Source: an uncultured Actinomycetota bacterium (GTDB taxonomy: Bacteria > Actinomycetota > Geothermincolia > Geothermincolales > Geothermincolaceae). Taken from it: a stretch of 64,000 nt of DNA. Below are positions 25,876 to 62,354 of the stretch, in pieces; position 1 is the first letter of the stretch, and every line of letters starts with the position of its first letter. Under the pieces are notes generated by a model. It saw nothing but the letters and a program-made list of their open reading frames with translations. It did no database searches and was not told where the DNA came from. The position numbers were made by a program, and so were the translations under genes. Location of the stretch: contig CAZETE010000003.1 in the NCBI GenBank assembly GCA_964515075.1, positions 14,254 to 78,253 of the forward strand, read 5' to 3'.

Positions 25876-25910
25876 CTCGTCCTCGAACCTCCGGCGTTCC
25901 GTTTACCAGC

Positions 25911-39473: not shown

Positions 39474-41102
39474 CTACTTGCGGCCGAAGCGCTCCTGCAG
39501 CCGCTTGAGCCTCTCCCGCTTCTCCGGCGCCACCCGCTCCCAGTCGGGGTCCCGCTCGTCCGTGTACATGCCGGTATCGGAGACGCCGCCCGGGTCGAAG
39601 GCCGCCAGGACCTTCTTCTGCCACTCGTTGAAGTCGTACGCGAGGGGCGAGATGAACTTGCGGGCCACCGGGGTGAAGGCGGCCAGGGGCACGTTGCACT
39701 GCTCGATGGCGGCCAGGGTGGTGTCGAAGCCCAGCGGGTCCAGGGACTCCCGGTGCCTCCGCAGGCGCTGGTCGTAGAAGTAGATGGTCTCGCAGTGGCC
39801 GAAGAGGTTGTTCTCGAACTGGACGATGTAGGGGTTCTCCCCCCCGTCGTCGATCATCCTCCCGTCCCGGATGTAGGACTCCTTGGGCCCCTGCATGGCG
39901 TGGGTCCAGGCGTACTGGGAGTCGCTGGCCTCGTTGCCGTCCAAGTTGGTGGCGAACATGTTGCCAAAGCGGAAGACGGTGGCGAAGATGGTGCAGCGCA
40001 GCATGTTGTTGCCCATCAGCTTGCGCACCGGCTCGATCTTTCCCATGTCCATGACGATGCCCCCCAGCCCGTCGACGATCTCGTTGAGCACCGCCTCCTG
40101 ATAGGCCAGCTCGTCCGGGGAGCCGCCCACCAGCATGACCATGAAGGGGTGGGAGACGCAGGCGTTGGCCAGGTCCAGGATGGCCTGGCCCTTCTTCACC
40201 AGCTTCTGGAAGAGGTGGGGCATGATCAGCAGGATGAACTCGGTGGTGACCATGCGGGTGAAGAGGTAGCCGATCTCCGCCTCCCCCAGCTTGTAGACGG
40301 CGTCGGTGCAGGCCTGCTCGCTTCCGAAGCCGCAGTTGTAGAGGCGGCAGCAGTCGGGCAGGGCGGTGGTGGAGTCGAGGATGAGGCCCCCGCCCTCGAT
40401 GAACTCCGGCCCCGGCCAGTCGAAGAGCCGCACCGCCGCCTTGGTGAAGACCCCGAAGCCCCCGAAGGCGCCGGAGGTGCCGCGCACGATGCCGCGCAGG
40501 GAGGGCCCGGGGCCGTCGCCGGTGAACCAGCCGGCGCCGGAGCCCAGCGATCCCAGGCGCAGCACCTCGCCGTTGGGCAGGACCCATTCCACCCCCAGCA
40601 GGTTGCGGGAGGAGGTGCTCATGTACAGGCTGTCGTTGCCGCAGCCGTGCATGGAGGTGGCCCCGGCCAGGGGGGAGCAGTGCGGCCCCGCCCCCACGAT
40701 GTGGGTGTTGAGGCCGTGCTTGAAGGCCTCCGCCTGCAGCTCGCCGCCGCAGACGTAGGGCTCCACCACCGCGATCATGTTCTCCTCATCGATCTCCAGG
40801 ATGCGGTCCATGCGCCGCAGGTCCAGGATGACCTCGTCGTCGTAGGCGGGGCCGTTGTGCGCCCCCCACCCGGTGGAGATGGCCTTGTACTTCAGGCCGT
40901 GGGCGTTGCAGGCCCGCACCACCGCCTGCACCTCCTCGGTGGAGCCGGGCAGCGTCACCGCCGCCGGGCGCTTGACCCAGAGGTCCTCGGTCATGTTGAG
41001 GAAGGGCTGCCAGGCGTAGCTGTCCAGCATGGCCGGCTCGCGGGTGACGTTGTCCCCGCCCACCGCCTCTTCCAACGCGCGGTATGCCTCCTCGGTTATC
41101 AT
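39474..41102 (-). CDS. FAD-binding oxidoreductase (VAO/GlcD-like FAD_binding_4)
   Basis: PAAVTLPGSTEEVQAVV, ILDLRRMDRILEID, VEPYV, GVEWVLPNGEV, G.FGVFTK, AFDPGG. Confidence 0.85.
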   Translation of the reverse strand: MITEEAYRALEEAVGGDNVTREPAMLDSYAWQPFLNMTEDLWVKRPAAVTLPGSTEEVQAVVRACNAHGLKYKAISTGWGAHNGPAYDDEVILDLRRMDRILEIDEENMIAVVEPYVCGGELQAEAFKHGLNTHIVGAGPHCSPLAGATSMHGCGNDSLYMSTSSRNLLGVEWVLPNGEVLRLGSLGSGAGWFTGDGPGPSLRGIVRGTSGAFGGFGVFTKAAVRLFDWPGPEFIEGGGLILDSTTALPDCCRLYNCGFGSEQACTDAVYKLGEAEIGYLFTRMVTTEFILLIMPHLFQKLVKKGQAILDLANACVSHPFMVMLVGGSPDELAYQEAVLNEIVDGLGGIVMDMGKIEPVRKLMGNNMLRCTIFATVFRFGNMFATNLDGNEASDSQYAWTHAMQGPKESYIRDGRMIDDGGENPYIVQFENNLFGHCETIYFYDQRLRRHRESLDPLGFDTTLAAIEQCNVPLAAFTPVARKFISPLAYDFNEWQKKVLAAFDPGGVSDTGMYTDERDPDWERVAPEKRERLKRLQERFGRK

Positions 41103-42391
41103 GCCGGCACCTCCTCTCCGCCCTCCTGCTCCCCCTCGACCGAGCGCAGGACCAGTTCGGCCAGGTCATATATCTTCAGGTTGTAACCGTTCTCCGCCGC
41201 CGCGTCGCGGAAGACCCGCTCGCACCACGGGCAGGCGGTGACCAGGGCCTCCGCCCCGGTGGCCAGGGCCTCCTGCAGCCGCTCGGCCGCGGTCCAGACG
41301 GCGAAATCGGGGAAGGCGTCGATGACCCCGCCGCCCGCCCCGCAGCACCAGGACCACTCGCGGATGCGCTCCATCTCGCGCAGTTCCACCCCGGGCAGCG
41401 CCCGCAGCACGCGCCGCGGCTCCTCGTAGACGCCGCGCCTGCCGGTGCGGCTCTGGCAGCGCAGGCGCTGGCGCTTGTCCCCCTCCCACTCGGGCAGGAA
41501 GGGCTCGCCCATGCGCCCCAGGTGGCAGGGGTCGTGCCAGGTGACCACGAGGTCCTGGGCATGGCGCGGCCGGAGCTTCCCCTGCTCGATGAGGCGGTCG
41601 AGGAGCTGCACCAGGTGGACCGGCTCGGCGGAGAGCTCGATGCCCATGCGCGGGTAGAGGTGGCGGAAGGCGGCGAACCCGTCGGAGCACGGGGCGAGCA
41701 GCAGCGAGGCGCCGGAGGCCTTCACCCTGGCCTGCAGGTCCTCGGCGAAGTTGCGGGCCTCGCCGCGGTAGCCCAGTTCGTAGGCGCGCCCGCCGCAGCA
41801 GGACTCCTCCGCCCCGGCGATGCCCACGTCCAGCCCGGCTCCGAGCAGCAGGCGGACGGCCCCGCGCAGGGCCGGCCAGAGTTCCCGGTCGTAGGAGAAA
41901 CGGCACCCGGCGTGGAGCATCACGTCCACCTTCTCCCGGTTGATGTCCTTCAATCCCAGGCCTTCCGCCCAGGCCCCCCGCTCGGCCTTGGGCTCGCCGA
42001 GCATGTTGTTCTCCTGCTTCAAGGCGTCGATCACCGCCATGTGCTCCAGCAGCAGCTGGCCGTCCTCCACGCACTTGCCCCGCATCTCCAGCAGCACCTC
42101 GGTCAAGTCGATGATCTCCCGGTAGGTCTTGCAGGTGACGTCGCAGGCCCCGCAGAGCTGGCAGGAGTAGATGACCTCGGAGACCCTCTCGGTGAGCTGG
42201 CTGCGGCCCTCGGTGATGGAGAGGCCCATGTTCATGCGGCCGGAGCCGGAGAAGGAGTGGAAGTTGAAGCGGTTGATGGAGGGGCAGTTGCGGGAGAAGC
42301 GGGAGCTGCGCATCTGGTTGAAGGGGATCCACTTGCAGGAAGAACAGCGCATGCAGGCGGCCATGTCCTCGCGGTAGTCCTCGAGCGCCAT
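41099..42391 (-). CDS. Fe-S/CCG-domain protein (GlpC/GlcF/HdrD-like)
   Basis: CMRCSSC, CQLCGACDVTC; two CCG domains (HAGC..ESCCG..CSDG; HDPCHLGR..WCCGAGG..ACPWC). Confidence 0.9.
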   Translation of the reverse strand: MALEDYREDMAACMRCSSCKWIPFNQMRSSRFSRNCPSINRFNFHSFSGSGRMNMGLSITEGRSQLTERVSEVIYSCQLCGACDVTCKTYREIIDLTEVLLEMRGKCVEDGQLLLEHMAVIDALKQENNMLGEPKAERGAWAEGLGLKDINREKVDVMLHAGCRFSYDRELWPALRGAVRLLLGAGLDVGIAGAEESCCGGRAYELGYRGEARNFAEDLQARVKASGASLLLAPCSDGFAAFRHLYPRMGIELSAEPVHLVQLLDRLIEQGKLRPRHAQDLVVTWHDPCHLGRMGEPFLPEWEGDKRQRLRCQSRTGRRGVYEEPRRVLRALPGVELREMERIREWSWCCGAGGGVIDAFPDFAVWTAAERLQEALATGAEALVTACPWCERVFRDAAAENGYNLKIYDLAELVLRSVEGEQEGGEEVPA

Positions 42392-42392
42392 G

Positions 42393-43904
42393 TCACTCAC
42401 CTCCCCCGCTGCCGATGAAGCAGAGCTTGCCCCGGTTGAGCACGCCGTCGGGGTCGAAGACCTTCTTCAGCTCGCGCAGGGCGTAGACGGTGTCGGGGCA
42501 GCGGTCGTAGGCCGGCCCGGTCCAGGGCTCGTGGGGGCGGGAGAAGAAGGCCCCCGCCTCCGCCAGGGACGCCGCGGCGTCCCGCGCCAGCGCGCCCGCC
42601 CGCGCCGCGCCCTCTTCATCTGACGGGTTGTAGAAAATCTGGAACTCCAGGTGGCAGGAGCTCCCCTGGCGGATGGGCTGGACGTAGAGGCCCAGGTCCT
42701 CTTCGGGGAAGCCGTGCCGCGCGGCCGCCTCCCCCATCGCGGCGGTGAAGGCGGGCACGCGGTCCAGGGTGGTGAGGAAGAAGACCTCCCGGCAGCCGCC
42801 CAGCGGGCGCAGCTTCCACCAGGCCTCGCCGCTGTCCGCGCCGGGACCCTCCAGTTCCCGGGCCAGGCGGGACGCGTCGATGCCGGGAAGCTCCCGCGAC
42901 GGGGCCAGTCCCGCGGCGCGGGCGGCGGCGCCCAGGTCCTTCTCCTGGTAGGCCAGCCTGCGCTCCGGCAGGTAGCCGGAGAGCCCCGACACGGCGTAGA
43001 TCAGCGTGTAGGGGGCCTGGCGCGCGGCGCAGGCGGCGACGTCCTCCCGGCTCCCGCCCGCCAGCGCGGCCAGGGAGCGCGGGCCGAGGACCAGCAGCTC
43101 GTCGCCCAGCCGCCGCTTGCAGGCCTCCCGGATGAAGCCCCGGAGTCCCTCGAATCCCTCCGCGGCGATGAAGTAGAAACGGCGGATGGAGGGCTTGAGC
43201 TCCAGCTTGACCGTCCCCCAGGTGACCAGCCCCAGGGTGCCCTGCGACCCCTGCACCAGCTTGCCCAGGTCGGAAGAGGCGGGGCCCATGGGGTTCTTCT
43301 GGGCGTTGCCCAGCGCCCACTGGTCCTCCAGCGTGCCCGGCCCGGCGGCCGACCCGGTGCGGAAGACGTCGCCGGTGCCGAAGATCACCTCCATGCAGAG
43401 CAGGGGGTCGGTGGAATCCCAGTGGTACTTGGGGATAAGGAAGGGCTCGCGCTCCAGGCAGCTGGCCAGCACCGATTTGCCGGGGCGGGGAGCCAGCGGG
43501 GAGAGCACGCGCAGGCCCTCCCCTTCCGCCGCGGCGCGCAGGGCGGGGAAGGTCACCCCGGGCTCCACCAGGGCCACGCGGTTGCGCCGGTCCAGGCGGA
43601 CGATGCGGTCCATGCCCGAGAAGTCGACCACCACCCCCGGCGCGGCGGGGACGGAGCCGCCCTTGCGGTGGGGGGCTGCGGAGGAGACCGGCACCAGGTT
43701 GAGGCCCTCGGCGCGGGCCAGCCCGACCAGCGGCGGCAGCTGCTCGGCCGCGGAGGGGCGGACCACGCAGAGGGGCTCGCCGGCGGCGCCGTCCCAGGCG
43801 GCCCGGGCGTGCGCCGCGAGGGACGCGGCGTCGGTGGACAGGGCATCCGTTCCCAGCAGTCCTTCCAGCCGGTCCAGGACCTTCTTCTCCAGCGACTTAC
43901 TCAT
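42393..43904 (-). CDS. Second FAD-binding oxidoreductase (VAO/GlcD/GlcE-like)
   Basis: VVRPSAAEQ, VVVDFSGMDRI, VEPGVT, MEVIFGTGDV, GSQGTLGLVT, LKKVFDPDGVLNRG; start reset to ATG 43904. Confidence 0.85.
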   Translation of the reverse strand: MSKSLEKKVLDRLEGLLGTDALSTDAASLAAHARAAWDGAAGEPLCVVRPSAAEQLPPLVGLARAEGLNLVPVSSAAPHRKGGSVPAAPGVVVDFSGMDRIVRLDRRNRVALVEPGVTFPALRAAAEGEGLRVLSPLAPRPGKSVLASCLEREPFLIPKYHWDSTDPLLCMEVIFGTGDVFRTGSAAGPGTLEDQWALGNAQKNPMGPASSDLGKLVQGSQGTLGLVTWGTVKLELKPSIRRFYFIAAEGFEGLRGFIREACKRRLGDELLVLGPRSLAALAGGSREDVAACAARQAPYTLIYAVSGLSGYLPERRLAYQEKDLGAAARAAGLAPSRELPGIDASRLARELEGPGADSGEAWWKLRPLGGCREVFFLTTLDRVPAFTAAMGEAAARHGFPEEDLGLYVQPIRQGSSCHLEFQIFYNPSDEEGAARAGALARDAAASLAEAGAFFSRPHEPWTGPAYDRCPDTVYALRELKKVFDPDGVLNRGKLCFIGSGGGE

Positions 43905-44301
43905 GGGCGCACCCCCCCGCCTCGTAGCGGCTCGCATAGGGGGCGGAGCGGGCGCAGCCGGGCTCCGAGGAGAGCGCCTTCACCAGGCGCGCCTGCATCA
44001 GCGCGACCAGGCGCCGCCGCACCGCGGGCAGGCTCAGGAGCTTCGCCTGCAGGCGGGTCATGGCCTCGTTCACCGCCAGGCGCAGGGCCAGCCCCGACCA
44101 CTTCTCCACCGCGGAGTTGATCCTGGCGATGGTCTCCTCGCTCGCCCCGTCCAGGCGCATCAGGACGTCCTCGAAGTCCAGGCCCAGTTCGCCCATGGCC
44201 CCCTCCAGGGCATCGCCCAGCATGGCGGAGGCCATGTCCCCCAATCCGTACTTGTAGTTCAAGCGCATGAAGGCGAAAGCCCGCCTCGTATCCAGGCTCA
44301 T
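43897..44301 (-). CDS. Hypothetical helical protein (134 aa)
   Basis: SD plus ATG; overlaps both neighbours; no recognisable motif. Confidence 0.65.
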   Translation of the reverse strand: MSLDTRRAFAFMRLNYKYGLGDMASAMLGDALEGAMGELGLDFEDVLMRLDGASEETIARINSAVEKWSGLALRLAVNEAMTRLQAKLLSLPAVRRRLVALMQARLVKALSSEPGCARSAPYASRYEAGGCAHE

Positions 44302-45125
44302 GTGGCACTCCCTTCCTCCGTCCGGCGGCGCTGCCGGAAGTCCTTTAAGTATCTCCTTCCCATGCCGTCCCGGCCGACCAGCACGTCGGCGGCGAGGACG
44401 GCCTGCACGATGCCGGGCTCCAGCGGGTTGACGATGGCCGCGGTGAGCCCGGCCTCCACCGCCATGGCCAGGAAGGCGGCGTTGAGCAGGTTGCGGGTGG
44501 GCATGCCGAAGCTTACGTTGGACGCGCCCAGCACCGTTCCCGCCCCCAGCTCAGCGGCTGCGCGGATGCACTCCAGGGTGAGGCGGGCCGACCCCGTCTC
44601 GGTGGCCACCGGCAGGGTGAGGAAGTCGATGAGGACGCGTCCCGGTTCGATACCGTACCTCCCCGCCCGCTCGACGATGCGGCGGGCGATGTCCAGGCGG
44701 CCTCGCGCGTCGGCGGGTATGCCGGCGCGGTCCTTGGCCATGCCGATGACCACGGCGCGGCGTTCGGCGGCGGCCGGCAGCACCGTCTCCAGGCTGTCGT
44801 CGTCGCCGGTGACCGAGTTGACCAGGCTGCCCTCGGGCAGGACGGCCAGGGCGGCGCTCAGGGCGGCGGGGTCGGAGGAGTCGGCGCACACCGCCAGTCC
44901 GGTGACTCGGTGCACCTCCAGTGCCAGCCGCGGCAGCAGTTCCGCCTCGTCCACCCCCGGCGCGCCGACGTTGACGTCGATGACGTCCGCGCCCGCCTGC
45001 GCCTGGGCCGAGGCCTCCGCCAGGGCCATCTCCAGGCCGCCCCCGGCCAGCTCCGCCGCCAGCTTCGGCCTCCCGGTGGGATTGATCCTTTCCCCGATGA
45101 TGATGGTATGCCCGTCCGCCTCCAT
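44298..45125 (-). CDS. Pterin-binding methyltransferase (MT2; methyl-THF:corrinoid, AcsE/MetH pterin-domain type)
   Basis: IIGERINPT, AGADVIDVN, DSS, NSV, LGASNVSFG, GLTAAIVNP; start reset to ATG 45125 (GGAGG SD). Confidence 0.9.
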   Translation of the reverse strand: MEADGHTIIIGERINPTGRPKLAAELAGGGLEMALAEASAQAQAGADVIDVNVGAPGVDEAELLPRLALEVHRVTGLAVCADSSDPAALSAALAVLPEGSLVNSVTGDDDSLETVLPAAAERRAVVIGMAKDRAGIPADARGRLDIARRIVERAGRYGIEPGRVLIDFLTLPVATETGSARLTLECIRAAAELGAGTVLGASNVSFGMPTRNLLNAAFLAMAVEAGLTAAIVNPLEPGIVQAVLAADVLVGRDGMGRRYLKDFRQRRRTEEGSAT

Positions 45126-45148
45126 AACCTCCCTACCTCCGTTCCACG

Positions 45149-45310
45149 ATTTGGGGTCAGGCCCCAAATTCAGTTTTTCCGCCTCCAACGGCATGGATGA
45201 CCCGCTTCACGTCTGGAAAGTGAAATTTGGGGCCTGCTCTGGAAATGCGACGTTTTCATCCTTCCGTGGTGCCGCGTGGCGCGGCATGAACGACTGACCC
45301 CAAATTCAGT
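45149..45310. repeat. Composite REP-like element (GGGGTCAG family) inside the methyltransferase gene run
   Basis: ATTTGGGG-TCAGG-CCCCAAAT hairpin at 45149-45169; 45216-45301 is the near-exact reverse complement of 6609-6693. Confidence 0.85.
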
Positions 45311-45931
<621 letters not shown>

Positions 45932-45937
45932 GGTCCC

Positions 45938-46579
45938 TTACTCCTTTCCGCTGAAGTCCTTAACGAACCTGACCGCGTCCATGGCGTCGTTGCTCCAGGC
46001 GTCCGCCCCCGCGTACTCGCAGAGGCGCCCGGAGGCGGCGCCGCCTCCCAGCATTATCCTCACCCGCCCGCGCAGGCCGGCCCGCTCGAGCTCGGAAACC
46101 GTCTCCAGGATGGGCTCGTAAGCCACGGTGAGCAGCACGCTCATGCCCACCACCGCCGCGCCCGACTCCTCCACCGCCCGCACGAAGCGCGCGGGGGCGA
46201 CGCTCACCCCCAGGTCGAGCACCTTATAGCCCGAGCAGAGCAGGAGCATGGTGACGATGTCCTTGCCGATGTCGTGCACGTCGCCCAGGGGCGCCCCCAT
46301 GATCACCGGGACCTCCTCCCCCGTCCCCCCGGGCACGAAGCCGCCGGATCCCTCCAATAAGGACATCACTTCCTTGAAGATCTCTCCCGACATGATCAGG
46401 GCGCTCAGGTAATACTCCCGGCGTTCGTACTTCTCCCCCACCACCTCCATGCCCCGGCGGCAGACGTCGATGATCCCCAGGGGCTCCGCGCCCGCCGCGA
46501 GCATGCGCCGGACCGTCCCGAGGACCCGCTCCTCCTCCAGGTCGACCATGGCCTCGAGCAACGCGTCTTCCAAGCGCAT
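45938..46579 (-). CDS. Corrinoid (B12-binding) methyl-carrier protein 2
   Basis: GDVHDIGKDIV, DLGVSV, GMSVLL, LGGG. Confidence 0.92.
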   Translation of the reverse strand: MRLEDALLEAMVDLEEERVLGTVRRMLAAGAEPLGIIDVCRRGMEVVGEKYERREYYLSALIMSGEIFKEVMSLLEGSGGFVPGGTGEEVPVIMGAPLGDVHDIGKDIVTMLLLCSGYKVLDLGVSVAPARFVRAVEESGAAVVGMSVLLTVAYEPILETVSELERAGLRGRVRIMLGGGAASGRLCEYAGADAWSNDAMDAVRFVKDFSGKE

Positions 46580-46592
46580 CTCCCCTCCCCCT

Positions 46593-47369
46593 TCAGGTGG
46601 TCCTCTTCAGGGAGCCGAAACTGAAACGGTCGCCGCGCAGCAGCAGCCAGCCCCAGATCACCCGCAGGTCCCGGGCCGCGTAGATCAGCTGCTCCAGGCA
46701 GAAGGCCGGCGCCCCGGCCCGGCTGTCCAGCAGCCCCGCCTCCCGCTCGCCCAGGACGGTGGCGGTGAGGGCGAGGTCGGAGCGGACCGGCGCGTACTTC
46801 GGGCGCCGGGCGAAGATCTCCGGGACGGTCTCGTGGCCCAGCTCCGCCTCCAGCAGCGGCTGGGTGTGGTCGTAGAGCATGTACTTGCGGTCGAAGACCA
46901 GGGGCTCGCCGCCGCCCTCCAGCACCCTCTCCAGGTAGATGACCCGCCTGCCCCGCTTGACCCCCAGCTTCTGCGCCGGCACCTTTCCCGCCGGGACCAG
47001 CTTCACCCCCAGCAGGCGCACGCGGGAATCGGCGCCCTGGGCCCGCATCTCCTCGTGGAAGTCGGGGATGAAGAAGAGGCCGCCCTCGGTGCGGGGGTTG
47101 ACCACGAAGGTGCCGCGCCCCTGCTCGCTGCGGAGCAGCCCCCCTTCGATGAGCAGCGAGATGGCGCGGCGCACGGTCATGCGCGAGAGCCCGAAGGCCT
47201 CGCCCAGTTCGTGCTCGGAAGGGATGCGCTCGCCCGGCCGCAGCCTCCCCTTGAGGATGCCCTCCTCGATGAGCTGGCCCAGCTGGACGTAGGCGGGGAC
47301 GTAGGAGGCCTCGTCGATGCCGCCCAGCTCCCGCAGCGCCGTCCCCGCCGCCTGTCTGCCTTCTCCCAT
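46593..47369 (-). CDS. GntR-family regulator, HutC/UTRA subfamily
   Basis: PAYVQL..IPSEHEL..SRMTVRRAI..QGRGTFV winged helix; C-terminal UTRA-like domain. Confidence 0.92.
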   Translation of the reverse strand: MGEGRQAAGTALRELGGIDEASYVPAYVQLGQLIEEGILKGRLRPGERIPSEHELGEAFGLSRMTVRRAISLLIEGGLLRSEQGRGTFVVNPRTEGGLFFIPDFHEEMRAQGADSRVRLLGVKLVPAGKVPAQKLGVKRGRRVIYLERVLEGGGEPLVFDRKYMLYDHTQPLLEAELGHETVPEIFARRPKYAPVRSDLALTATVLGEREAGLLDSRAGAPAFCLEQLIYAARDLRVIWGWLLLRGDRFSFGSLKRTT

Positions 47370-47392
47370 CCTCCGCCCGCCTTCCTCCTGCC

Positions 47393-47430
47393 TTGACAAC
47401 CGCCGCTGATTTGTATATATGTATATACAA
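47393..47430 (+). promoter_or_regulatory. Sigma70-type promoter with overlapping HutC-type operator
   Basis: TTGACA 47393-47398; perfect inverted repeat TTGTATATA-TG-TATATACAA 47411-47430 containing GTATATAC (matches the HutC consensus GTMTAKAC). Confidence 0.75.
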
Positions 47431-47475
47431 GTTATAGCAACGGGAGGCTAGGCTGTCAAGCCGGGGAAGGGGAGG

Positions 47476-48621
47476 ATGAACATGACCGTGATGACCTCGA
47501 GGGAACGGATCGATACGGCGGTCCGGCTGGGCAAGCCGGACCGCGTGCCGGTGGCGCCCATGATGGACGTCTTCGCCGCCCGCTATTCCGGAGTCACCCA
47601 GCACGACATGATCTTCGACATCCGCCAGTCCGACCGGGCCTTCACCCAGGTCCACCGGGAGCTGGGGCCCATCGACGGCTTCAACATGTCCAACGCCGGC
47701 CTGGGCGGCCTGGTCAACGCCCTGGCCATCGTCCCCCCTATCATCCCCGGCGTGGACGGGGTGGACGAGAACGCCCTCTGGCAGTTCGTGGAGAAGACGG
47801 TGATGGACGGGGAGGAATACCCCGCCCTGGCCGCGAACCCGGATGTCTTCATGCGCGACAAGGCCATCGCCAACCGCCCCGACCTCAAGGGCAAGGCCGA
47901 CTTCTATTTCTTCAAGGTGAAGGGGCAGCTGGGCGTCTTCAGGGTGCTGCTCTCCTGCCGCAGCTGGCGCAAGCGCGGAGTAGAGCCCATGGTGGGGGCG
48001 AACATCATCCTCTTCCCCCTGGAGACCATCTCCACCATGCTCCGCTCCTACACCGACTTCGTCACCGACCTCTACCGCCACGGCCCCGAGTTGAAGAAGG
48101 CCGCCCGGGCCATGCTGGAGACCTGGTTCCCCAAGTGCCTGGCGGGCCCGAAGATCTCCGGGGTGAGGCGCGCCTTCATCGGGCTCACCCGCACCAGCGC
48201 CTCCCTGATGTCGCCCCGGCAGTTCGAGGAGTTCGCCCTGGAGGACCTGCTCTACCTGTGCCGCTACCTCCTCGACCACGACGTCACCCCCCTGCTCCAC
48301 CTGGACAACGACTGGACCCCCTTCCTGCACTACTTCAAGGAACTGCCCCGCGGCAGGTGCATCTGCAACCTCGACTCCGCCACCGACATCTTCGCCGCCA
48401 AGGAGATCCTGGACGGCCACATGTGCATCATGGGGGACGTGCCGGCCACCCTGCTCAAACTGGCGGAGCCGGCGGAGGTGGAGGCCTACTGCGAGCGCCT
48501 CATCCGAGAGGTCGGGGCGGACGGGGGGTTCATCCTCGCCTCCGGCTGCGACATCCCCATCGACGCCAAGCCGGAGAACGTCCGGGCCATGCTGCAATCC
48601 GTCGGAAAGTTCAATCCCTAG
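47476..48621 (+). CDS. URO-D-family TIM-barrel protein, likely substrate:corrinoid methyltransferase (MT1) A
   Basis: SRERI..A...PDRVPV, MSPRQFEEF, LHLD, IMGDVP, GFILASGCDIP..AKPENV; next to corrinoid proteins. Confidence 0.8.
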   Translation: MNMTVMTSRERIDTAVRLGKPDRVPVAPMMDVFAARYSGVTQHDMIFDIRQSDRAFTQVHRELGPIDGFNMSNAGLGGLVNALAIVPPIIPGVDGVDENALWQFVEKTVMDGEEYPALAANPDVFMRDKAIANRPDLKGKADFYFFKVKGQLGVFRVLLSCRSWRKRGVEPMVGANIILFPLETISTMLRSYTDFVTDLYRHGPELKKAARAMLETWFPKCLAGPKISGVRRAFIGLTRTSASLMSPRQFEEFALEDLLYLCRYLLDHDVTPLLHLDNDWTPFLHYFKELPRGRCICNLDSATDIFAAKEILDGHMCIMGDVPATLLKLAEPAEVEAYCERLIREVGADGGFILASGCDIPIDAKPENVRAMLQSVGKFNP

Positions 48622-48637
48622 GCAGGAAAGGACGGCC

Positions 48638-49768
48638 ATGAAAGCCAAGGAGAGGATAGACACCGCGATACGCCTGGGCAAGCCCGACCGCATACCGGTG
48701 GTGCCCATGATCGACAGCTTCGCGGCACGCTATGCCGGCGTGACCCAGCACGACATGCTCTTCAACATCTTCCGCTCCGACCGCGCCTTCCTGCGCGTCC
48801 ACCGCGAGCTGGGCCCCATCGACGGCTTCAACTACTCCAACGCCGGGCTGGCCCGGCTGATGGACTCCCTCTCCATCATCCCCCCCATCTGGCCCGGGGT
48901 GGGCGGGGTGGACGAGAACGCCCTCTGGCAGTTCGTGGAGAAGACGGTGATTAAGCCGGAGGACTACCCCGCCCTGGCCGCGAAACCCGGGGCCTTCATG
49001 CGCGACAAGGCCATCGAGCTGCGCTCCGAGCTCAAGGGCCTGTGCGGCTTCTACCTCTACAAGGCCCTGGGCTTCCTCGACGGCCTCAAGGTGATGCTCT
49101 CCTGCCGGATCTGGCGGATGCGGGGCATCGAGCCCATGGTGGGGGCGAACAACATCCTCTTCCCCCTGGAGCAGATCTCCACCCAGCTCCGCTCCTACTC
49201 CGACTTCGTCACCGACCTCTACCGCCACGGGGAGGACCTCAAGCGGGCCGCCCACGCCATGCTCAAGACCTGGTTCCCGCTCTGCCTGGCCGGGCCTTAC
49301 ATCTCCGGGGTGCGGCGCGCCCTCATCGGCATGACGCGCACCAGCGCCACCCTGATGTCGCCCCGGCAGTTCGAGGAGTTCGCCCTGCCCGACCTGGAGG
49401 AGCTGTGCGCCTACCTCATCCGGCACGGCATCACCCCGGTGCTCCACCTGGACAACGAGTGGACCGCCTTCTTCCCCTTCTTCCGCCGCCTGCCCCGGGC
49501 GAAATGCGTCCTCAACCTGGACGGCTCCTCCGACATCTTCGCCGCCAAGGAGGTGCTGGGCGACCACATGTGCATCATGGGGGACGTGCCGGCCACCCTG
49601 CTCAAGCTGTCGGAGCCGGAGGAGGTGGAGGCATACTGCGAGCGCCTCATCCGAGAGGTCGGGGCGGACGGGGGGTTCATCCTCTCCTCCGGCTGCGACA
49701 TCCCCATCGACGCCAAGCCGGAGAACGTCCGGGCCATGCTACAATCGGTGCATAAGTTCAAATATTAG
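48638..49768 (+). CDS. URO-D-family protein, likely MT1 B (tandem paralog)
   Basis: Same motifs as 47476-48621; colinear along its full length. Confidence 0.8.
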   Translation: MKAKERIDTAIRLGKPDRIPVVPMIDSFAARYAGVTQHDMLFNIFRSDRAFLRVHRELGPIDGFNYSNAGLARLMDSLSIIPPIWPGVGGVDENALWQFVEKTVIKPEDYPALAAKPGAFMRDKAIELRSELKGLCGFYLYKALGFLDGLKVMLSCRIWRMRGIEPMVGANNILFPLEQISTQLRSYSDFVTDLYRHGEDLKRAAHAMLKTWFPLCLAGPYISGVRRALIGMTRTSATLMSPRQFEEFALPDLEELCAYLIRHGITPVLHLDNEWTAFFPFFRRLPRAKCVLNLDGSSDIFAAKEVLGDHMCIMGDVPATLLKLSEPEEVEAYCERLIREVGADGGFILSSGCDIPIDAKPENVRAMLQSVHKFKY

Positions 49769-49819: not shown

Positions 49820-50641
49820 GTGTTCTTTCGCAAGACCAAGTGGAGATTCTTCCTCTACGCGCTGCCCTTCTGGCAGCCGCTGACGGACAGGTGGGCCTCC
49901 GTCACCAACTGGCCCATCGTCGGCAAGGCCTCACAGTACCTGCACAACGACGAGCACTACGACGTGACCTTCATCCCCGTGAACCAGGACATCGAACAGG
50001 ACCCCTCCACCGTCCTGCCCCGCCAGGTGGCGGAGGAGATGTGCCGCCGCGCCGCCCACCGGGTCATCCTGCCCATCTGCCTCTGCCGGGTGGGATGCCG
50101 CTGCCAGGACCACCCCATGGAGATCGGCTGCATCTTCATGGGCGAGAGCGCCAAGCAGATCGACCCCAGCATGGGCCGGGCGGTCTCGGTGGAGGAAGCC
50201 ATGGAGCACATCGACCGGGCCATCCGGTCCGGCCTGGTGCTGCAGATCGGGCGGGTGGACGCCGACCCCTTCATGCTGGGCATCAAGCCCCGCGACCGCG
50301 ACCGCTTCCTCACCCTCTGCTTCTGCTGCCCCTGCTGCTGCGTGGCCATGCGCAACATGCCCCGCTGGGCGCCGGAGTTCAAGGCGCGCATGCACGCCCT
50401 GGAGGGATTGAGCATCGAGGTGACCGACGATTGCAACGGCTGCGGCCGCTGCGTCGACGCCTGCTTCGCCGGGGCCATCTCCATCGAGGGGAAACGGGCA
50501 GTCATCAGCGACGCCTGCAAGGGGTGCGGCATCTGCGCCTCCACCTGCCCCCGCCACGCCGTGGTCGTCCGGGTGGAGGACGGCAACCGCATGCTCGAGG
50601 AGGCCTTCCGCCGCATCGAGCGCTACGCCGACGTCACCTGA
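49820..50641 (+). CDS. Cys-rich 4Fe-4S dicluster protein
   Basis: CLCRVGCRC, GCIF, CFCCPCCC, CNGCGRCVDAC, CKGCGICASTCP. Confidence 0.85.
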   Translation: MFFRKTKWRFFLYALPFWQPLTDRWASVTNWPIVGKASQYLHNDEHYDVTFIPVNQDIEQDPSTVLPRQVAEEMCRRAAHRVILPICLCRVGCRCQDHPMEIGCIFMGESAKQIDPSMGRAVSVEEAMEHIDRAIRSGLVLQIGRVDADPFMLGIKPRDRDRFLTLCFCCPCCCVAMRNMPRWAPEFKARMHALEGLSIEVTDDCNGCGRCVDACFAGAISIEGKRAVISDACKGCGICASTCPRHAVVVRVEDGNRMLEEAFRRIERYADVT

Positions 50642-50688
50642 GCTTGCGCCCGCCTCCCTCCGTGCCCCCTTGAACCCGGCGGGCACGA

Positions 50689-50721
50689 CCCCGCAGGCGG
50701 GCTGGGAGGGATCCTGCGGGG
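50689..50721 (+). terminator. GC hairpin after the 4Fe-4S gene
   Basis: CCCCGCAGG (50689-50697) pairs with CCTGCGGGG (50713-50721). Confidence 0.4.
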
Positions 50722-50810
50722 CGCCGGTCCCGGCCCCTCCTGGGCCGGTGCGGCCCGATGGCGTTATAATGCTGGTAGCCGGAGCAGGGCAGGAGCAGGA
50801 AGGACAGGGC

Positions 50811-51275
50811 ATGGAAGGGCAGCAGGTGAGTCAGGAGCCGGCGCCGCAGGCGCAGGATGGGGTGAGCGGGAAGAAGGTGGCGCTCATCTTCTTCCTCATC
50901 TTTTTGGGCCTACTGGCCATCGCGGGCGCGGCCTTCGGCATCTATGTCTGGCGCTTCAACGCCGCCATAAACGACATCTCCATCGAGCCCGTCGACCTCC
51001 TGCAGCTGCCGGACGGCGCCTACTTCGGCAACCGGAGCGTCTTCCACGTGGAGGTCTCGGTTAGCGTCGTGGTCAAGGCCCACCAGATCGTGGCCATCGA
51101 CGTGCTGGACGCGGGGTCCACGGGCAACGGCGGCCAGGGCAAGGAGAACCTGGACCTGCTCATCTCGCGGATCATCGAGTCGCAGGACGTCCGGGTGGAC
51201 ACGGTCAGCGGGGCCACCGCCACCCAGAAGGTCTTCTTGAAGTCAGTGGAGGGGGCCCTGACCCGCGGGGACTGA
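50811..51275 (+). CDS. Membrane-anchored FMN-binding (flavinylated) protein
   Basis: One TM helix, then DGAYFG...VDTVSGAT flavinylation motif; TATAAT at 50765-50770; start reset to ATG 50811. Confidence 0.85.
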   Translation: MEGQQVSQEPAPQAQDGVSGKKVALIFFLIFLGLLAIAGAAFGIYVWRFNAAINDISIEPVDLLQLPDGAYFGNRSVFHVEVSVSVVVKAHQIVAIDVLDAGSTGNGGQGKENLDLLISRIIESQDVRVDTVSGATATQKVFLKSVEGALTRGD

Positions 51276-51319: not shown

Positions 51320-51787
51320 GTGAGCCCGCTGAACGGGGCAGTCGTTTACTGCGGCAGGCACGACAGCTTGAGAAAGCTGGCCGAGGGCATCGCCGGCGGC
51401 CTGGCGGAGTCGGGTTACGTCGTATCCTTGATGGAGGCGGAGTCGGTGGAGCACCTCGACCCCGACCTGGTCTTCCTGGTGGTGGGCTCCCCCGCCCGCG
51501 CCGGCAGGGCGGCGAGGGCCCCCTCGAGGCTCATCAAGCGCCGGATGGGCGGGGGGTGGGCGGGCAAGCCCTATGCCGTCTTCGCTACGGGCATCCGGGA
51601 CGGGGGCGGCGAGCCGCAGTCCAAGGGGGCCGACCAGCTCCACCGGCTGCTGCGGGAGCGCGGCCTGCTCCCGCTGGCGGAACCCTTCAAGGCCTGCGTA
51701 CAGGCGGCGAAGGGGCCGCTGGAGGAGGGCGAGTTCGAGCGTGCCGTCCAGTTCGGCAGGGACCTCGCCGCCGCCCTGCGCCGCTGA
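51320..51787 (+). CDS. Flavodoxin-like protein
   Basis: VVYCGRHDSL..LAEGIA, VVGSP, YAVFAT, GPLEEGE.ERA..FG. Confidence 0.7.
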   Translation: MSPLNGAVVYCGRHDSLRKLAEGIAGGLAESGYVVSLMEAESVEHLDPDLVFLVVGSPARAGRAARAPSRLIKRRMGGGWAGKPYAVFATGIRDGGGEPQSKGADQLHRLLRERGLLPLAEPFKACVQAAKGPLEEGEFERAVQFGRDLAAALRR

Positions 51788-51840: not shown

Positions 51841-51897
51841 TTGACAACCGCCGCGAGTGTCCTATCATAGATTACAAAAGTGTCTGACATTCAGACA
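51841..51897 (+). promoter_or_regulatory. Promoter plus FadR-type operator
   Basis: TTGACA 51841, TATCAT 51863; inverted repeat TGTCTGA-CAT-TCAGACA 51881-51897 (GTC-T-GAC matches the FadR consensus GTM-N-KAC). Confidence 0.75.
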
Positions 51898-52004
51898 TAT
51901 TTATTTGCCGAATATCCACCATATTCGCAGCAGCCCGCAGCCGTTTCACCGCACCGGACAGCACACATCCACCAGGCGAGTACGCTCGGAGAGGCGGTGA
52001 GAGA

Positions 52005-52784
52005 GTGGCCGTAGGGGAGATCCTCCGCATCGACCGGGCCCCCTCCATGCCCGACCTGGTGGCCGGGCGCATCCGGGACATGATCGCCTCCGGAGCCCTT
52101 GAGCCCGGCGACTGCATCCCCCCCCAGACCGCGCTGGCCGGACAGATGGAGGTGAGCCGCGCCAGCGTGCGCGAGGGGCTCAGGTCCCTGGAGGCGGGGG
52201 GGTACATCCAGAGGCTGCCCAACGGCAGGTACCGCGTCACCGCCCTCACCGGGGGCCGGCTGCCCAACCCCCTCCTGGCGGTGCTCAGGTCGGACCCTTC
52301 GCTGGTGTGGGACCTGCTGGAGGCGGCGGAGGTGATGGTGGTGGAGGCGGTGCGCCTGGCGGCGGTGCGCGCCGGCGGAGAGAGCATCCGGAAGATGGGG
52401 GAGACGGTGCGGCAGATGGAGGAGTGCAGCCGCAGCCGCCGCCGCTTCGTGCGCGAGTTCATCCGCGTTTACTCCAATTTCTACGAGGCGCTGGCCGGCG
52501 CCACCGGCAACGTCGTCTACCTCCACCTGGGCCACGCCTTCCTGGAGGTGCTGGCGGAGGCCCTGCCCTACCCGGACAAGCTCTTCCTGGTGCAGGCCGA
52601 CATCTCCACCGTGCTCTACCGCCAGCACCTGGACATCTGGGAGGCCCTGCGGGACGGCGACCCGGGAGCGGCCGCGGCCGCCTTCCGGCGCCACCTGGGC
52701 TTCATCGAGGAGAAACTGCGGATGATCCTGGGGGCGGATGAAGGCCGGAACGCGAAGCCGGCCCTGGACCAAGGGGGTGGATGA
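52005..52784 (+). CDS. FadR-subfamily GntR regulator
   Basis: I..G.LEPGD.IP....LA.QM.VSRASVREGL; FCD domain with ATGN and H..I..A. Confidence 0.92.
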   Translation: MAVGEILRIDRAPSMPDLVAGRIRDMIASGALEPGDCIPPQTALAGQMEVSRASVREGLRSLEAGGYIQRLPNGRYRVTALTGGRLPNPLLAVLRSDPSLVWDLLEAAEVMVVEAVRLAAVRAGGESIRKMGETVRQMEECSRSRRRFVREFIRVYSNFYEALAGATGNVVYLHLGHAFLEVLAEALPYPDKLFLVQADISTVLYRQHLDIWEALRDGDPGAAAAAFRRHLGFIEEKLRMILGADEGRNAKPALDQGGG

Positions 52785-54040
52785 TGGGTTACGCGGACGT
52801 CTTTCCGCGGCTTTCAGCCGGGGTGTCCCAGGCCGACCTGGCCCTGGCCCGGGCCTTGCGGGACTGGGGGGAGAACGAGGTGGCGGGCAAGCGCCTGGAG
52901 TTGAAGGAGGACTACGAAGGGCTGCTCAAGCCGGCCATGCGCAAGCTCTTCTGGGATATCGGCATGCAGAAGATCGCCTGGCCGGAGCGGCTCGACGGGG
53001 GCGGCCAGGACACGCCGGACCTGGCCCCGACCATGGCGACGGCCCTGGAGGAGATCGGCCGCGCCGACACCGGCATCGCCTGCCTGCTCGCCGTCGACCT
53101 CGCCTTGAGCGCGGCGGTGGCCATGCCCCCGGGTCCGCCCGGGGCCCTGCTGGAGAGGATGGCCGGCGATTTCTGCCGGTCCGGCAGGGCGGTCGTCGTC
53201 TCGCTGGTCCTTCCGGCCCTGGGGGGCAGGGCCGCCGGCAGCCTGGGCGAGTACCGCGGCAAGACCGTCCCCCTGGCCAGGCCGGAGGGCGGAGGGTGGG
53301 CCGTGGACGCGCGGGGCCTGCGCCCCTTCAACTCCGGGGCCGACGCCGACTTCTTCTGCGTGGCCTGTTCCGCCGCCGAAGGCGAATCCCCCCTGCTGCT
53401 GATGGTCCCCGGCGACGCGGCGGGCCTCAAGCGCGGGGCGGAGTTCAAGAAGACCGGGCTGGCCGCCAGCCGCAATGCCGACATAGACCTCGAGAACGTG
53501 AAGGTACCGGCGGAGCAGGTGCTGCTGCGGGGGGAAGCGGCCTGGCGCGGGCTCCTCTCCTGGCTGTGCCTGGGGATGAGCGCCACCTGCACCGGCGCCC
53601 TGCTGGCCGCCTACGAGATCATCCGGGAATGGGGGGACACCCGGGTGATCAAGGGGCGGGGGTGCGCCTTCCGGGACAACCCCCTGACCGCCTCGCTGAT
53701 GGCGGAGATCGCCACCACCGCGACGGTGGCGCGCCTGCTCACCGGCTCGCTGTCCCAGCTGCTGGCCGAGCCTTCCGTCCACGGGGACGCCGGCTCCGAG
53801 AGGGTCTGGGCGGCCGCCTGGGGCGTTTTCAACCGGGTGAGCGCCTCGGCGGAACAGGCCATCGACAACACCATGGAGCTGATGGCCTCGGCCGGCTACG
53901 CCAAGGAGTGGCAGCTGGAAAGGTACTGGCGCGACGTCAAGACCGTCGCGGTCAGCATGGGCAGCCGTGAGCTGGGCAAGATGGACCTGGCCCGCTGGTT
54001 CTACGGGGCCCGGCCGCTGGGAGGAGGTGGAGGGGAATGA
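52781..54040 (+). CDS. Degenerate acyl-CoA dehydrogenase-fold protein A
   Basis: WPERLDGGG, EEIGRAD, MELMASAGYAKEWQLERYWRD; TEP and YEG motifs absent. Confidence 0.85.
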   Translation: MMGYADVFPRLSAGVSQADLALARALRDWGENEVAGKRLELKEDYEGLLKPAMRKLFWDIGMQKIAWPERLDGGGQDTPDLAPTMATALEEIGRADTGIACLLAVDLALSAAVAMPPGPPGALLERMAGDFCRSGRAVVVSLVLPALGGRAAGSLGEYRGKTVPLARPEGGGWAVDARGLRPFNSGADADFFCVACSAAEGESPLLLMVPGDAAGLKRGAEFKKTGLAASRNADIDLENVKVPAEQVLLRGEAAWRGLLSWLCLGMSATCTGALLAAYEIIREWGDTRVIKGRGCAFRDNPLTASLMAEIATTATVARLLTGSLSQLLAEPSVHGDAGSERVWAAAWGVFNRVSASAEQAIDNTMELMASAGYAKEWQLERYWRDVKTVAVSMGSRELGKMDLARWFYGARPLGGGGGE

Positions 54041-55311: not shown

Positions 55312-55325
55312 GCGGTGATGCGGCC

Positions 55326-56003
55326 ATGCAGGAGACGACCAGGCAGGCCGGCATGGTGGACGCCGCCAACCGCGTCGCCCGCGAGCTGCTCCGGACCCCG
55401 CGCTTCAAGGAGGGCCTCAAGATGGTGCTCGACTCGCTGGACCCGGAGTCCGCGCCGGAGCTGGTGCGCACGCTGGTCTGGGAGGATACCGACGTCTTCC
55501 TCTCCCTGGCCGGCTCGCTGCCCCGGCTCCTGAACATCTTCTTTTACGCCTTGAAGGAGCTGGCGGAGCAGCTGGGCAGCTTCCCCCCGGAGATGCTCTC
55601 CGGCTTCCTGGCCGGGGCCGTGGAGGGCCTGGAGGGAGAGGCGCTGGGGGAGGCGCTGGGGAGCGCGGCGCGTCTCCTCGCCCGGGTGTCGGAGGCGTCC
55701 GGCGAGAGGGTGCCCCGGAGCGCCGGGGAACTCGCCCGCTCGGCGGGCCGGGGCTTCGCCGGGGCCCGCCATCCCGGCGGGCAGGCCGAGGAGCCCTCCC
55801 CGGCCGCGGCTGCGCTGGCCGCCGTGAGCCGGGCGGTCAAGGCCGCGGCGGCGGCGGCCGCGGTGGAGGGCTCTCCCGCCCGCCGGGCCCTGAAGGCCTG
55901 CGCGGAGGACCTGGCCGGGGCCGTGCGGGAGCACCCGGAACTGGTCCGGGAGGCGGCCCCCGTCCTCGAGGCCCTGCGCGCCGCGGGCTGGGGGGTGGCG
56001 TGA
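55326..56003 (+). CDS. Unknown all-helical protein H1
   Basis: Start reset to ATG 55326; N-terminal half aligns by eye with 56003-56746. Confidence 0.75.
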   Translation: MQETTRQAGMVDAANRVARELLRTPRFKEGLKMVLDSLDPESAPELVRTLVWEDTDVFLSLAGSLPRLLNIFFYALKELAEQLGSFPPEMLSGFLAGAVEGLEGEALGEALGSAARLLARVSEASGERVPRSAGELARSAGRGFAGARHPGGQAEEPSPAAAALAAVSRAVKAAAAAAAVEGSPARRALKACAEDLAGAVREHPELVREAAPVLEALRAAGWGVA

Positions 56004-56746: not shown

Positions 56747-56816
56747 CTATATTGGCTGAGGGCGGTGGTCCCTGCCGGCCCGGACCCGGACGGGGACCCC
56801 ACCGAGAGGAAGGCAG

Positions 56817-62341: not shown

Positions 62342-62354
62342 AAAGGAAGGGCAG

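Follow-up and report, generated by a model that had tools for sequence, protein, structure and literature searches.

Corrinoid demethylases are the means by which anaerobes take methyl groups from lignin-derived and other methylated compounds. The described bacterial O-demethylases (those of Desulfitobacterium hafniense, the Odm and Vdm systems of Acetobacterium dehalogenans, and the Mtv system of Moorella) and the chloromethane system Cdm consist of a first methyltransferase (MT1) of the URO-D superfamily, a corrinoid protein (CP) with a DxHxxG motif, and a pterin-binding second methyltransferase (MT2) that loads the methyl group onto tetrahydrofolate (THF). To our knowledge, the fate of the demethylated carbon skeleton is poorly known beyond a few model organisms. 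We analyzed a 64-kb stretch of DNA from an uncultured Actinomycetota bacterium (contig CAZETE010000003.1; hereafter, the window), in which genes for these three components are encoded together with a four-gene flavin/Fe-S module, i.e., a small protein, two flavoproteins (FADa and FADb), and an Fe-S subunit with CCG domains. We lean towards the view that the two halves form one catabolic pathway, in which the demethylase would load the methyl group onto THF and the dehydrogenase would oxidize the demethylated product.

The flavin/Fe-S half has described relatives of its own. As in GlcDEF of Escherichia coli and in the related YdiJ D-2-hydroxyglutarate dehydrogenase and Dld-II, two FAD_binding_4 proteins and a Fer4_8/CCG/CCG subunit are encoded together. 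Unlike in GlcDEF, the gene order is different, an extra small protein is present, the C-terminal catalytic domain of FADa is unrelated in sequence and is missing the HX6H...GEHG motif, and FADb (514 aa) is not GlcE-like. The predicted whole-chain fold of FADa resembles that of the 4-phenol oxidoreductases of the vanillyl-alcohol oxidase/p-cresol methylhydroxylase (VAO/PCMH) group (vanillyl-alcohol oxidase and dehydrogenase, eugenol oxidase, 4-ethylphenol oxidase, and p-cresol methylhydroxylase; TMq 0.66-0.71), and the chemistry of this group, oxidation beside a free para-phenol, would follow logically from O-demethylation. However, the FAD proteins of the window are 17-21% identical to these enzymes, with a cap domain that has no detectable sequence similarity, and VAO/PCMH enzymes use O2 or a cytochrome c subunit, whereas the window has a second flavoprotein and a CCG Fe-S protein. 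The third group for comparison is that of dehydrogenases linked to electron-transfer flavoprotein (ETF) and FixABCX, because paralogous four-gene modules lie between EtfA/EtfB and FixC-like/FixX-like genes; the window cluster has no ETF or FixCX genes nearby, and what it encodes in their place is a Cys-rich ferredoxin, a membrane FMN_bind protein, and a flavodoxin-like protein.

The methyltransferase half is close to the O-demethylases in composition, and an orthologous locus (L167; related loci are numbered L001 and onwards) also has genes for the ATP-dependent reductive activase RACo and for a DUF1638 protein, as O-demethylase systems do. Unlike O-demethylase and Cdm systems, the window has two MT1 and two CP genes, no RACo gene within 64 kb, control by a GntR regulator of the HutC type, and an MT2 gene that overlaps the flavin/Fe-S module; the last feature was not found in the literature searched on these systems. 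The original prediction did not recognize the pairing from characterized systems, and we likewise found no paper describing it; on the pairing, or on the methyltransferases of this lineage, the literature searched yielded nothing relevant.

Layout and regulation of the divergent cluster

All ten open reading frames that the original prediction had arranged into a divergent unit are present and have the look of genuine genes (third-position G+C of 0.89-0.98, in a window of ~70% G+C), and Pfam and NCBIfam searches confirmed the domain assignment for each of them that has a family. The boundaries of the unit had been drawn too narrowly, as three redox genes follow the second MT1 gene, to position 51787, and the probable operator of the regulator (47411-47430) lies between the two arms. 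On the minus strand, the order of transcription is GntR, CP2, CP1, MT2, small protein, FADb, CCG, FADa. The GntR gene (46593-47399) encodes a helix-turn-helix domain and a UTRA domain (Pfam, 3.8e-20 and 2.8e-19); its true start is probably an ATG 30 nt downstream of the listed one (orthologs have 250-262 aa). The two corrinoid proteins, CP2 (45938-46579) and CP1 (45311-45931), are ~45% identical, and both have B12-binding_2 and B12-binding domains with DVHDIG as the DxHxxG motif. They are followed by MT2 (44298-45194; Pterin_bind, 6.3e-23), predicted to be a methyl-corrinoid:THF methyltransferase, and by a conserved small helical protein of 134 aa that has no Pfam or NCBIfam family (43897-44301). 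The remaining three genes of the module encode FADb (42393-43937; 514 aa, VAO superfamily, with a partial FAD_binding_4 domain and a weak FAD-oxidase_C tail; its likely start is the second ATG, at 43904), the CCG subunit (41099-42400; 433 aa, GlcF/HdrD-like, with Fer4_8 and two CCG domains in both Pfam and NCBIfam), and FADa (39474-41102; 542 aa, VAO superfamily, with an N-terminal FAD_binding_4 domain, Pfam 3.9e-26).

The junctions between the minus-strand genes measure 13, 6, 116, -4, -41 (-8 from the second ATG of FADb), -8, and -4 nt, so that the interval between CP1 and MT2 (45195-45310) is the sole sizeable gap in the operon. Because the MT2, small protein, FADb, CCG, and FADa genes overlap, they appear to be translationally coupled, and the FAD module is probably co-transcribed with MT2. 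A promoter and terminator scan was uninformative within the operon. Downstream of FADa, fatty-acid synthesis genes start after 179 nt.

The plus-strand arm starts with two URO-D-superfamily genes, MT1a (47476-48621; Pfam 4e-24) and its 74% identical paralog MT1b (48638-49768; Pfam 2.5e-26). Beyond MT1b, separated by gaps of 28-51 nt, are the three redox genes: a Cys-rich protein of 273 aa (49820-50641), a presumed electron carrier, in which the motifs CLCRVGCRC...C and CFCCPCCC precede two [4Fe-4S] motifs of a C-terminal ferredoxin domain; an FMN_bind protein (50670-51275; Pfam, 27.4 bits) with one predicted transmembrane helix at residues ~70-90 (hydropathy 2.81); and a flavodoxin-like protein of 155 aa with a weak Flavodoxin_1 match (51320-51787), which is the last gene of this arm. 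A hairpin (51880-51898) and a promoter-like site (51841-51868) come after it, and then an unrelated operon under an FCD-type GntR regulator.

The 76-nt region between the two arms contains a perfect 9-bp inverted repeat, TTGTATATA-TG-TATATACAA (47411-47430), which stands out as AT-rich from the GC-rich genome, is present a single time in the window, and was found in 0 of 100 shuffles. The same sequence, with 0-1 mismatches, precedes the GntR gene in all of the fetched orthologous loci (L001, L005, L006, L007, L077, L082, L085-L087, and L167), and also in two sister clusters described below (L121 and L132); the copy upstream of GntR in L101 is weaker (3 mismatches). The regulator itself has the features of the HutC subfamily of GntR repressors, namely a GntR helix-turn-helix domain, a UTRA domain, and a palindromic GT...AC operator near its own gene. 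The palindrome is therefore probably the operator of this HutC-type GntR protein, and both divergent transcription units are predicted, by inferred binding at this site, to be under one regulator.

The gap between CP1 and MT2 contains several copies of a different repeat, resembling repetitive extragenic palindromic (REP) elements, with a 13-nt palindromic arm pair, CAGGCCCCAAATT / AATTTGGGGCCTG, which extend into the first codons of MT2 (45149-45305). We considered a riboswitch in this gap, which is structured (z = -2.1); however, a scan of 38.5-52.5 kb against Rfam at E<=1 found no riboswitch or other RNA, and the structure is better explained by the REP-like element, which recurs ~39 kb away (6555-6740) and, in L007, in the corresponding gap (5828-5933).

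Conservation of the pairing in related loci

For the analysis of gene neighborhoods, 78 loci around FADa homologs were fetched from species-representative genomes and 80 metagenome loci around MT1 homologs; the proteins of the window were mapped onto both sets, and a neighbor-joining tree of 95 FADa-like proteins was built. In this tree, the FADa proteins linked to corrinoid genes fall within a single clade of 12 (the window, L001-L007, L077, L082, L084, and L087), and the closest relatives are 66-79% identical to the window protein. A thirteenth locus, L167, fetched later, belongs with this clade (68% identity in FADa and 59% in MT1) and has the same operator. The arrangement GntR-CP-CP-(MT2)-small protein-FADb-CCG-FADa was found in nine loci, stemming from different metagenome-assembled genomes (MAGs) or samples: the window, L001, L082, L007, L087, L005, L077, L006, and L167. 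The locus of another clade member, L002, ends at a contig edge. The original prediction had named a lack of co-transcription or co-conservation of the oxidoreductase and methyltransferase genes as grounds for its refutation, and on this test it was not refuted, given the overlap with the MT2 gene, the nine loci, and the operator between the two units.

Within these loci, the partners of the FAD module vary. URO-D genes are the divergent neighbors in the window, L001, L007, L082, L085-L087, and L167. In the closest long-contig relative (L001/L079), where FADa is 79% identical, synteny with the window extends through the fatty-acid genes. In L087, the position of MT2 is held by a second URO-D type, similar to MtaA. 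L167 has the canonical set in full and is the most complete version: RACo and two URO-D genes are on one side, and the other side has GntR, two CPs, DUF1638, pterin MT2, and then the FAD module in the order small protein, FADb, CCG, FADa, followed by an alpha/beta-hydrolase and a transporter of the major facilitator superfamily (MFS). The redox genes beside MT1b recur as well: the Cys-rich ferredoxin after MT1b in L001, L007, and L082 (87-91% identical by tblastn in L001 and L007), FMN_bind genes beside the cluster in L005, L077, and L083, and flavodoxin-like homologs (51-54% identical) directly 3' of the MT1 gene in L085-L087. Homologs of the Cys-rich ferredoxin were also found after FAD modules recorded as being without corrinoid genes (L006, L054, L070, L076, and L078). 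It should be noted that both URO-D genes of L007 (1328-3625) and L082 (1323-3103) are fragmented by frameshifts, which may be assembly errors or pseudogenes.

Linkage of the two gene types is also seen for distant paralogs, as FADa-like (41% identity)-CP-MT1 with an MFS transporter in L058, L105, and L133, as CCG-FADb-FADa-MT1 in L157, and as FADb-CCG-FADa-aldehyde dehydrogenase divergent from MT1 in L127. The pairing is thus probably ancestral to one clade, with some losses; it has arisen more than once and is not obligatory. The closest FADa and MT1 homologs are in MAGs labeled Candidatus Geothermincola, Ca. Anoxymicrobiaceae, Ca. Solincola, or Actinomycetota, and more distant ones are in Syntrophomonadaceae and Desulfobacteraceae; several of the related contigs are labeled, by contig name only, as fen, sediment, or hot-spring samples.

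Three sister clusters, L121 (966-8470), L132, and L101, have the same GntR, operator, and two corrinoid proteins, followed by URO-D genes (L121 and L132 each have two, which differ in type; in L101, where the contig ends, one was detected). What L121 and L132 share with the window cluster is GntR with the two corrinoid genes, and their downstream enzymes differ from those of the window: in L121, Amidohydro_2 and FAD_binding_3 genes take the place of the FAD module and a homolog of the Cys-rich ferredoxin is convergent, and Amidohydro_2 was detected in L132. No pterin MT2 or FAD module was found in the three clusters. Amidohydro_2 is a family of aromatic-acid decarboxylases.

The four-gene FAD module is a stand-alone unit and is not specific to demethylases. 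The small protein is its first gene, and precedes FADb in at least 19 loci, some of which have corrinoid genes and some of which do not; single MAGs have at least 6-7 copies of the FADa family, most of them with no corrinoid genes nearby. Among the FADa-centered loci, ETF genes were found in 20 of 78 and a FixC-like flavoprotein with a FixX-like ferredoxin in 19 of 78, compared to 0 of 80 MT1-centered loci in each case; aldehyde:ferredoxin oxidoreductase (AOR) was found in 7 of the 78. In L006, EtfAB and the Cys-rich ferredoxin directly follow FADa. Genes of Amidohydro_2 and AMP-ligases recur around FADa-family genes, and near MT1 homologs, AMP-ligases were found in 20 of 80 loci and Amidohydro_2 in 9 of 80.

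The settings of some relatives are of another kind. Lone FADa paralogs (53-55% identical) in L008-L016, L023, L024, L026, L028, and L034 (FADa at ~10001) have a strongly conserved housekeeping neighborhood, which consists of MurT, GatD, a pyridine-nucleotide-disulfide oxidoreductase, Crp, glutaredoxin, an unknown 347-aa protein, FADa, ribonucleotide reductase, DUF166, and a response regulator; a second group of lone FADa genes is located between pyruvate kinase and DivIC. Such a setting is unexpected for a family of catabolic dehydrogenases. In L080 (5626-15161) and L004, which are corrinoid-free members of the clade, a gene of the saccharopine dehydrogenase family is directly upstream of the small protein, and in L080, FADa is followed by an Acyl_transf_3 gene and an enoate-reductase-like gene (OYE/Pyr_redox_2); these neighbors are a different pathway partner for the same FAD module.

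Several of the comparisons weigh against a single pathway. Three members of the clade (L003, L004, and L084) keep the FAD genes with no corrinoid genes and, therefore, the module can work alone. No URO-D MT1 was found in the fetched loci L005, L006, and L077 (these reach ~4-10 kb upstream, and contig ends truncate two of the three), and L001 is without the pterin MT2. Both the FADa and MT1 families are multi-copy in each genome, so that a lone adjacency could arise by chance, and the neighbors that suggest aldehydes belong to paralogous modules and not to this clade. The same facts (the autonomy and copy number of the module, the corrinoid-free copies inside and outside the clade, and the variable presence of MT1 and MT2) would be expected if the FAD module had merely landed by the corrinoid cassette in one ancestor and had been carried along since. 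We consider such an accident of neighborhood unlikely, however, given that MT2 and the module overlap at their start and stop codons, that the arrangement and the operator persist down to 68% identity in FADa and 59% in MT1, and that there are at least two further, non-orthologous juxtapositions with other gene orders (L058/L105/L133 and L157).

The methyltransferase and dehydrogenase components

The cluster encodes the three components expected of an O-demethylase-type system, i.e., an MT1 of the UroD superfamily, a corrinoid protein with the DxHxxG motif, and a pterin-binding MT2. The score of MT2 against NCBIfam NF005719 is 242.8 bits (cut-off, 259), and its best match in the PDB is 4o0q/4o1e (2e-36), deposited as 'Dihydropteroate synthase DHPS'; we take 4o0q to be the MT2 component of the D. 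hafniense O-demethylase, which the depositor's name does not indicate. The best match of CP1 is 4jgi (6.6e-51), deposited as 'Putative uncharacterized protein', which is presumably the cobalamin-binding protein of the D. hafniense O-demethylase (again, the deposited name does not indicate this). The sole PDB match of MT1a is CdmB (9rui), the chloromethane MT1 of A. dehalogenans, to which it is only distantly related (7.8e-21, over a partial alignment). CdmB clusters with the O-demethylase MT1s MtvB, OdmB, VdmB, and MtoB (PMC13222342).

A RACo gene encoded in cis, which is typical of O-demethylase-type systems, is the component that the window is missing: tblastn with the RACo protein of L096 found no match in the 64 kb, and the gene may be encoded elsewhere in the genome. 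Canonical DUF1638-CP-MT1-RACo-MT2 clusters occur among the related metagenome contigs (with RACo in L096, L098, L150, L154, and L155), and in L167 the orthologous cluster has a RACo gene next to it. With the exception of the cis-encoded activase, the methyltransferase half passes as a predicted O-demethylase-type three-component system.

It should be noted that the URO-D family extends to other contexts. In L165 (8001-10618) and on the contig of P0137, homologs 61-63% identical to MT1a lack a corrinoid protein in their vicinity and directly precede a CoA_binding/Succ_CoA_lig gene, similar to ADP-forming CoA ligases. Close relatives of MT1a may, then, not all be corrinoid methyltransferases. 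Given this setting, without corrinoid genes and beside the CoA-ligase-like gene, these homologs were set aside as evidence on the window cluster.

The missing RACo raises the question of whether the flavin/Fe-S complex serves the corrinoid chemistry itself, either by providing low-potential electrons that re-reduce inactive Co(II) corrinoid proteins instead of RACo or by oxidizing the THF- or corrinoid-bound methyl group instead of MetF. Most FAD-linked loci, like the window, have no RACo gene, whereas the canonical clusters encode one; the constant core of the clade consists of the two CPs and the FAD module, with MT1 and MT2 variable; and MT2 appears to be translationally coupled to the module. 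There are also precedents, as CCG/Hdr-like proteins partner MetFV in some acetogens, and enzymes of the VAO family, such as berberine bridge enzyme, oxidize N-methyl groups. Against such a role, L167 has RACo beside the same cluster; the module is far more common without corrinoid or folate genes, flanked by ETF, FixCX, and AOR; L003, L004, and L084 retain it without corrinoid proteins; and L001 and L087 retain it without the pterin MT2. Replacement of RACo by the FAD module is largely rejected because L167 encodes both, and a corrinoid service role as a whole seems very unlikely. Its more specific form, in which the complex would oxidize the carried methyl to methylene, as berberine bridge enzyme does with N-methyl groups, and thereby provide a MetF-independent route coupled to ETF or ferredoxin, we regard as highly improbable. 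We prefer to see the FAD module as a substrate dehydrogenase rather than a corrinoid accessory, because it is autonomous, because its copies elsewhere are found with ETF and FixCX, and because L167 has it together with RACo.

The original prediction described this dehydrogenase as GlcDEF-like; the subunit layout agrees with this description, and membership of the family does not. The score of FADa against the NCBIfam glcD equivalog is 50 bits (glcD scores, 46-50 bits; cut-off, 568), that of FADb against glcE is 17 bits (cut-off, 284), and that of the CCG subunit against glcF is 22.5 bits (cut-off, 333). FADa has no FAD-oxidase_C match in Pfam and aligns with E. coli GlcD over residues 32-228 only, i.e., the FAD-binding domain. 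The HX6H...GEHG motif of E. coli GlcD (H386, H393, and E430) was found in none of the 95 FADa-like sequences, nor in FADb; in place of the GlcD/LDHD signature, 94 of the 95 have HxExxxx[Y/F], which reads HxExxxxY in FADa (H436) and FADb (H429). FADb carries the canonical C-terminal tail FDPxGxxNxGK, and BLASTP of FADb against E. coli GlcE found no meaningful similarity (E 0.017, C-terminal tail only). By Pfam, the small protein does not resemble GlcG. The CCG subunit aligns with E. coli GlcF in a colinear manner (23% identity over 413 columns), and its PDB matches are HdrB and an Fe-S reductase. FADa is probably the catalytic subunit, and the CCG subunit is presumed to be the electron exit. 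The cluster, in its Pfam-scanned genes, has no cytochrome gene, and the partners of FADa are the second flavoprotein and the CCG protein.

In sequence, FADa is similar to solved structures only in its FAD-binding domain (residues ~5-250). There, the best PDB sequence matches of both FADa and FADb are 4-phenol oxidoreductases, which score slightly above glycolate oxidase and D-lactate dehydrogenase. With the C-terminal half as a profile, only spurious matches were found among PDB sequences, and hhalign gave no alignment with the C-terminus of E. coli GlcD; active-site assignment by homology, therefore, failed. The cap domain, which is of novel sequence, has four invariant residues (R369, R378, H436, and E438). 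An AlphaFold2 model from an alignment of 109 sequences (pLDDT 81.9, pTM 0.85) was used, and an earlier one from 13 sequences (pLDDT 58.7) was discarded. As modeled, FADa has a complete two-domain VAO fold, with Foldseek TMq of 0.66-0.71 to EUGO, PCMH, vanillyl-alcohol dehydrogenase, and 4-ethylphenol oxidase, and 0.63-0.66 to LDHD, an equally good fit.

Two points on the enzyme join those already listed against the proposed pathway. Foldseek is neutral, with E values of 1.2e-21 for D-2-hydroxy-acid dehydrogenase and 8.3e-21 for VAO/PCMH enzymes, and the GlcF-like CCG partners known to us belong to dehydrogenases of 2-hydroxy acids or glycerol-3-phosphate, and none to a 4-phenol oxidoreductase. 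A GlcDEF-type enzyme would imply the first example given in the original prediction, a methoxy acid, such as methoxyacetate or O-methyl-lactate, that is demethylated to a 2-hydroxy acid and then oxidized to the 2-oxo acid. The three-subunit layout is the same, the CCG subunit is colinear with GlcF, the top Foldseek matches are mouse D-lactate dehydrogenase (mLDHD) structures, and the four invariant cap residues could bind a carboxylate or a metal. Nevertheless, this assignment is improbable, in view of the absent motif, a catalytic half that aligns with neither GlcD nor PDB sequences, a glcD score far under the cut-off, and a FADb that is unrelated to GlcE apart from the C-terminal tail. The neighbors of paralogous modules (AOR, aldehyde dehydrogenase, Amidohydro_2, and AMP-ligase) and the sister clusters also indicate aldehydes and aromatics. 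A phenolic or benzylic product is more likely than a 2-hydroxy acid.

The rest of the window includes a second cluster in the vicinity (52005-63152), under the FCD-type GntR regulator, with two acyl-CoA dehydrogenase-like genes, a 506-aa protein without a family, the D-component of 2-hydroxyacyl-CoA dehydratase, and a BcrAD/BadFG-type activator ATPase. This gene set is typical of anaerobic metabolism of 2-hydroxy acids or aromatic CoA esters. Membership of its 2-hydroxyacyl-CoA dehydratase and acyl-CoA dehydrogenase genes (52-63 kb) in the demethylase unit was rejected, as they have their own regulator and promoter-like site, and no synteny in L001. The kdpA and kdpB genes of a potassium-transporting P-type ATPase (23830-27599) are unrelated to the demethylase cluster.

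Proposed pathway and its meaning

We infer the direction of methyl flow, the substrates of both halves, and the electron acceptors as follows. The two MT1s would move a methyl group from the substrate onto the two corrinoid proteins in the Co(I) state, and MT2 would pass it from the corrinoid to THF. The FAD module would oxidize the product of demethylation, or else some other intermediate in that pathway. The CCG clusters would be the exit for electrons, with the Cys-rich ferredoxin, the FMN_bind protein, and the flavodoxin-like protein as acceptors in the window and ETF in relatives such as L006. Because the FAD module is probably co-transcribed with MT2, co-regulated with MT1, and co-inherited with the corrinoid genes, the dehydrogenase most likely acts on a compound of the pathway that the demethylase serves.

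As to the identity of the compound, we tentatively propose a methoxylated aromatic, with a phenolic or benzylic product that is oxidized towards the aldehyde, as a possibility rather than an expectation. An aromatic is preferred to a methoxy acid because CP1, MT2, and MT1 have O-demethylase affinities (for CP1 and MT2, with the identities assumed above), because sister clusters swap the FAD module for Amidohydro_2 and FAD_binding_3 genes, because AMP-ligase and Amidohydro_2 genes surround MT1 homologs, because AOR and aldehyde dehydrogenase genes adjoin paralogous FAD modules, and because the 2-hydroxy-acid dehydrogenase motif is absent. The 4-phenol oxidoreductases being the best PDB matches of both flavoproteins was counted on the same side. 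In this scheme, the demethylase would expose a phenol, after which the flavoprotein would oxidize a benzylic or alcohol position to the aldehyde, and the outcome would be a counterpart of vanillyl-alcohol oxidase or p-cresol methylhydroxylase that is independent of oxygen and cytochromes. A broader claim, that the module founds a whole family of oxygen-independent, ETF/FixCX-coupled counterparts of these enzymes, is doubtful at present.

The components are of known kinds, and what is uncharacterized is their combination and the dehydrogenase family, with its novel cap sequence, its HxExxxxY motif, its small partner protein, its links to ETF and FixCX, and its many paralogs. The cluster ties a demethylase system to a dedicated dehydrogenase in the genome of an uncultivated actinomycetote, and may be an oxygen-free route for the breakdown of methoxylated, probably lignin-derived, compounds. 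If the methyl group itself were the substrate of the flavoprotein, the module would represent a new enzyme for methyl-group oxidation. If, instead, demethylation unmasks the position that the flavoprotein oxidizes, the cluster would perform the chemistry of vanillyl-alcohol oxidase or p-cresol methylhydroxylase without oxygen, and its regulator, operator, two MT1s, and dehydrogenase would provide a testable handle on the anaerobic turnover of methoxylated aromatics.

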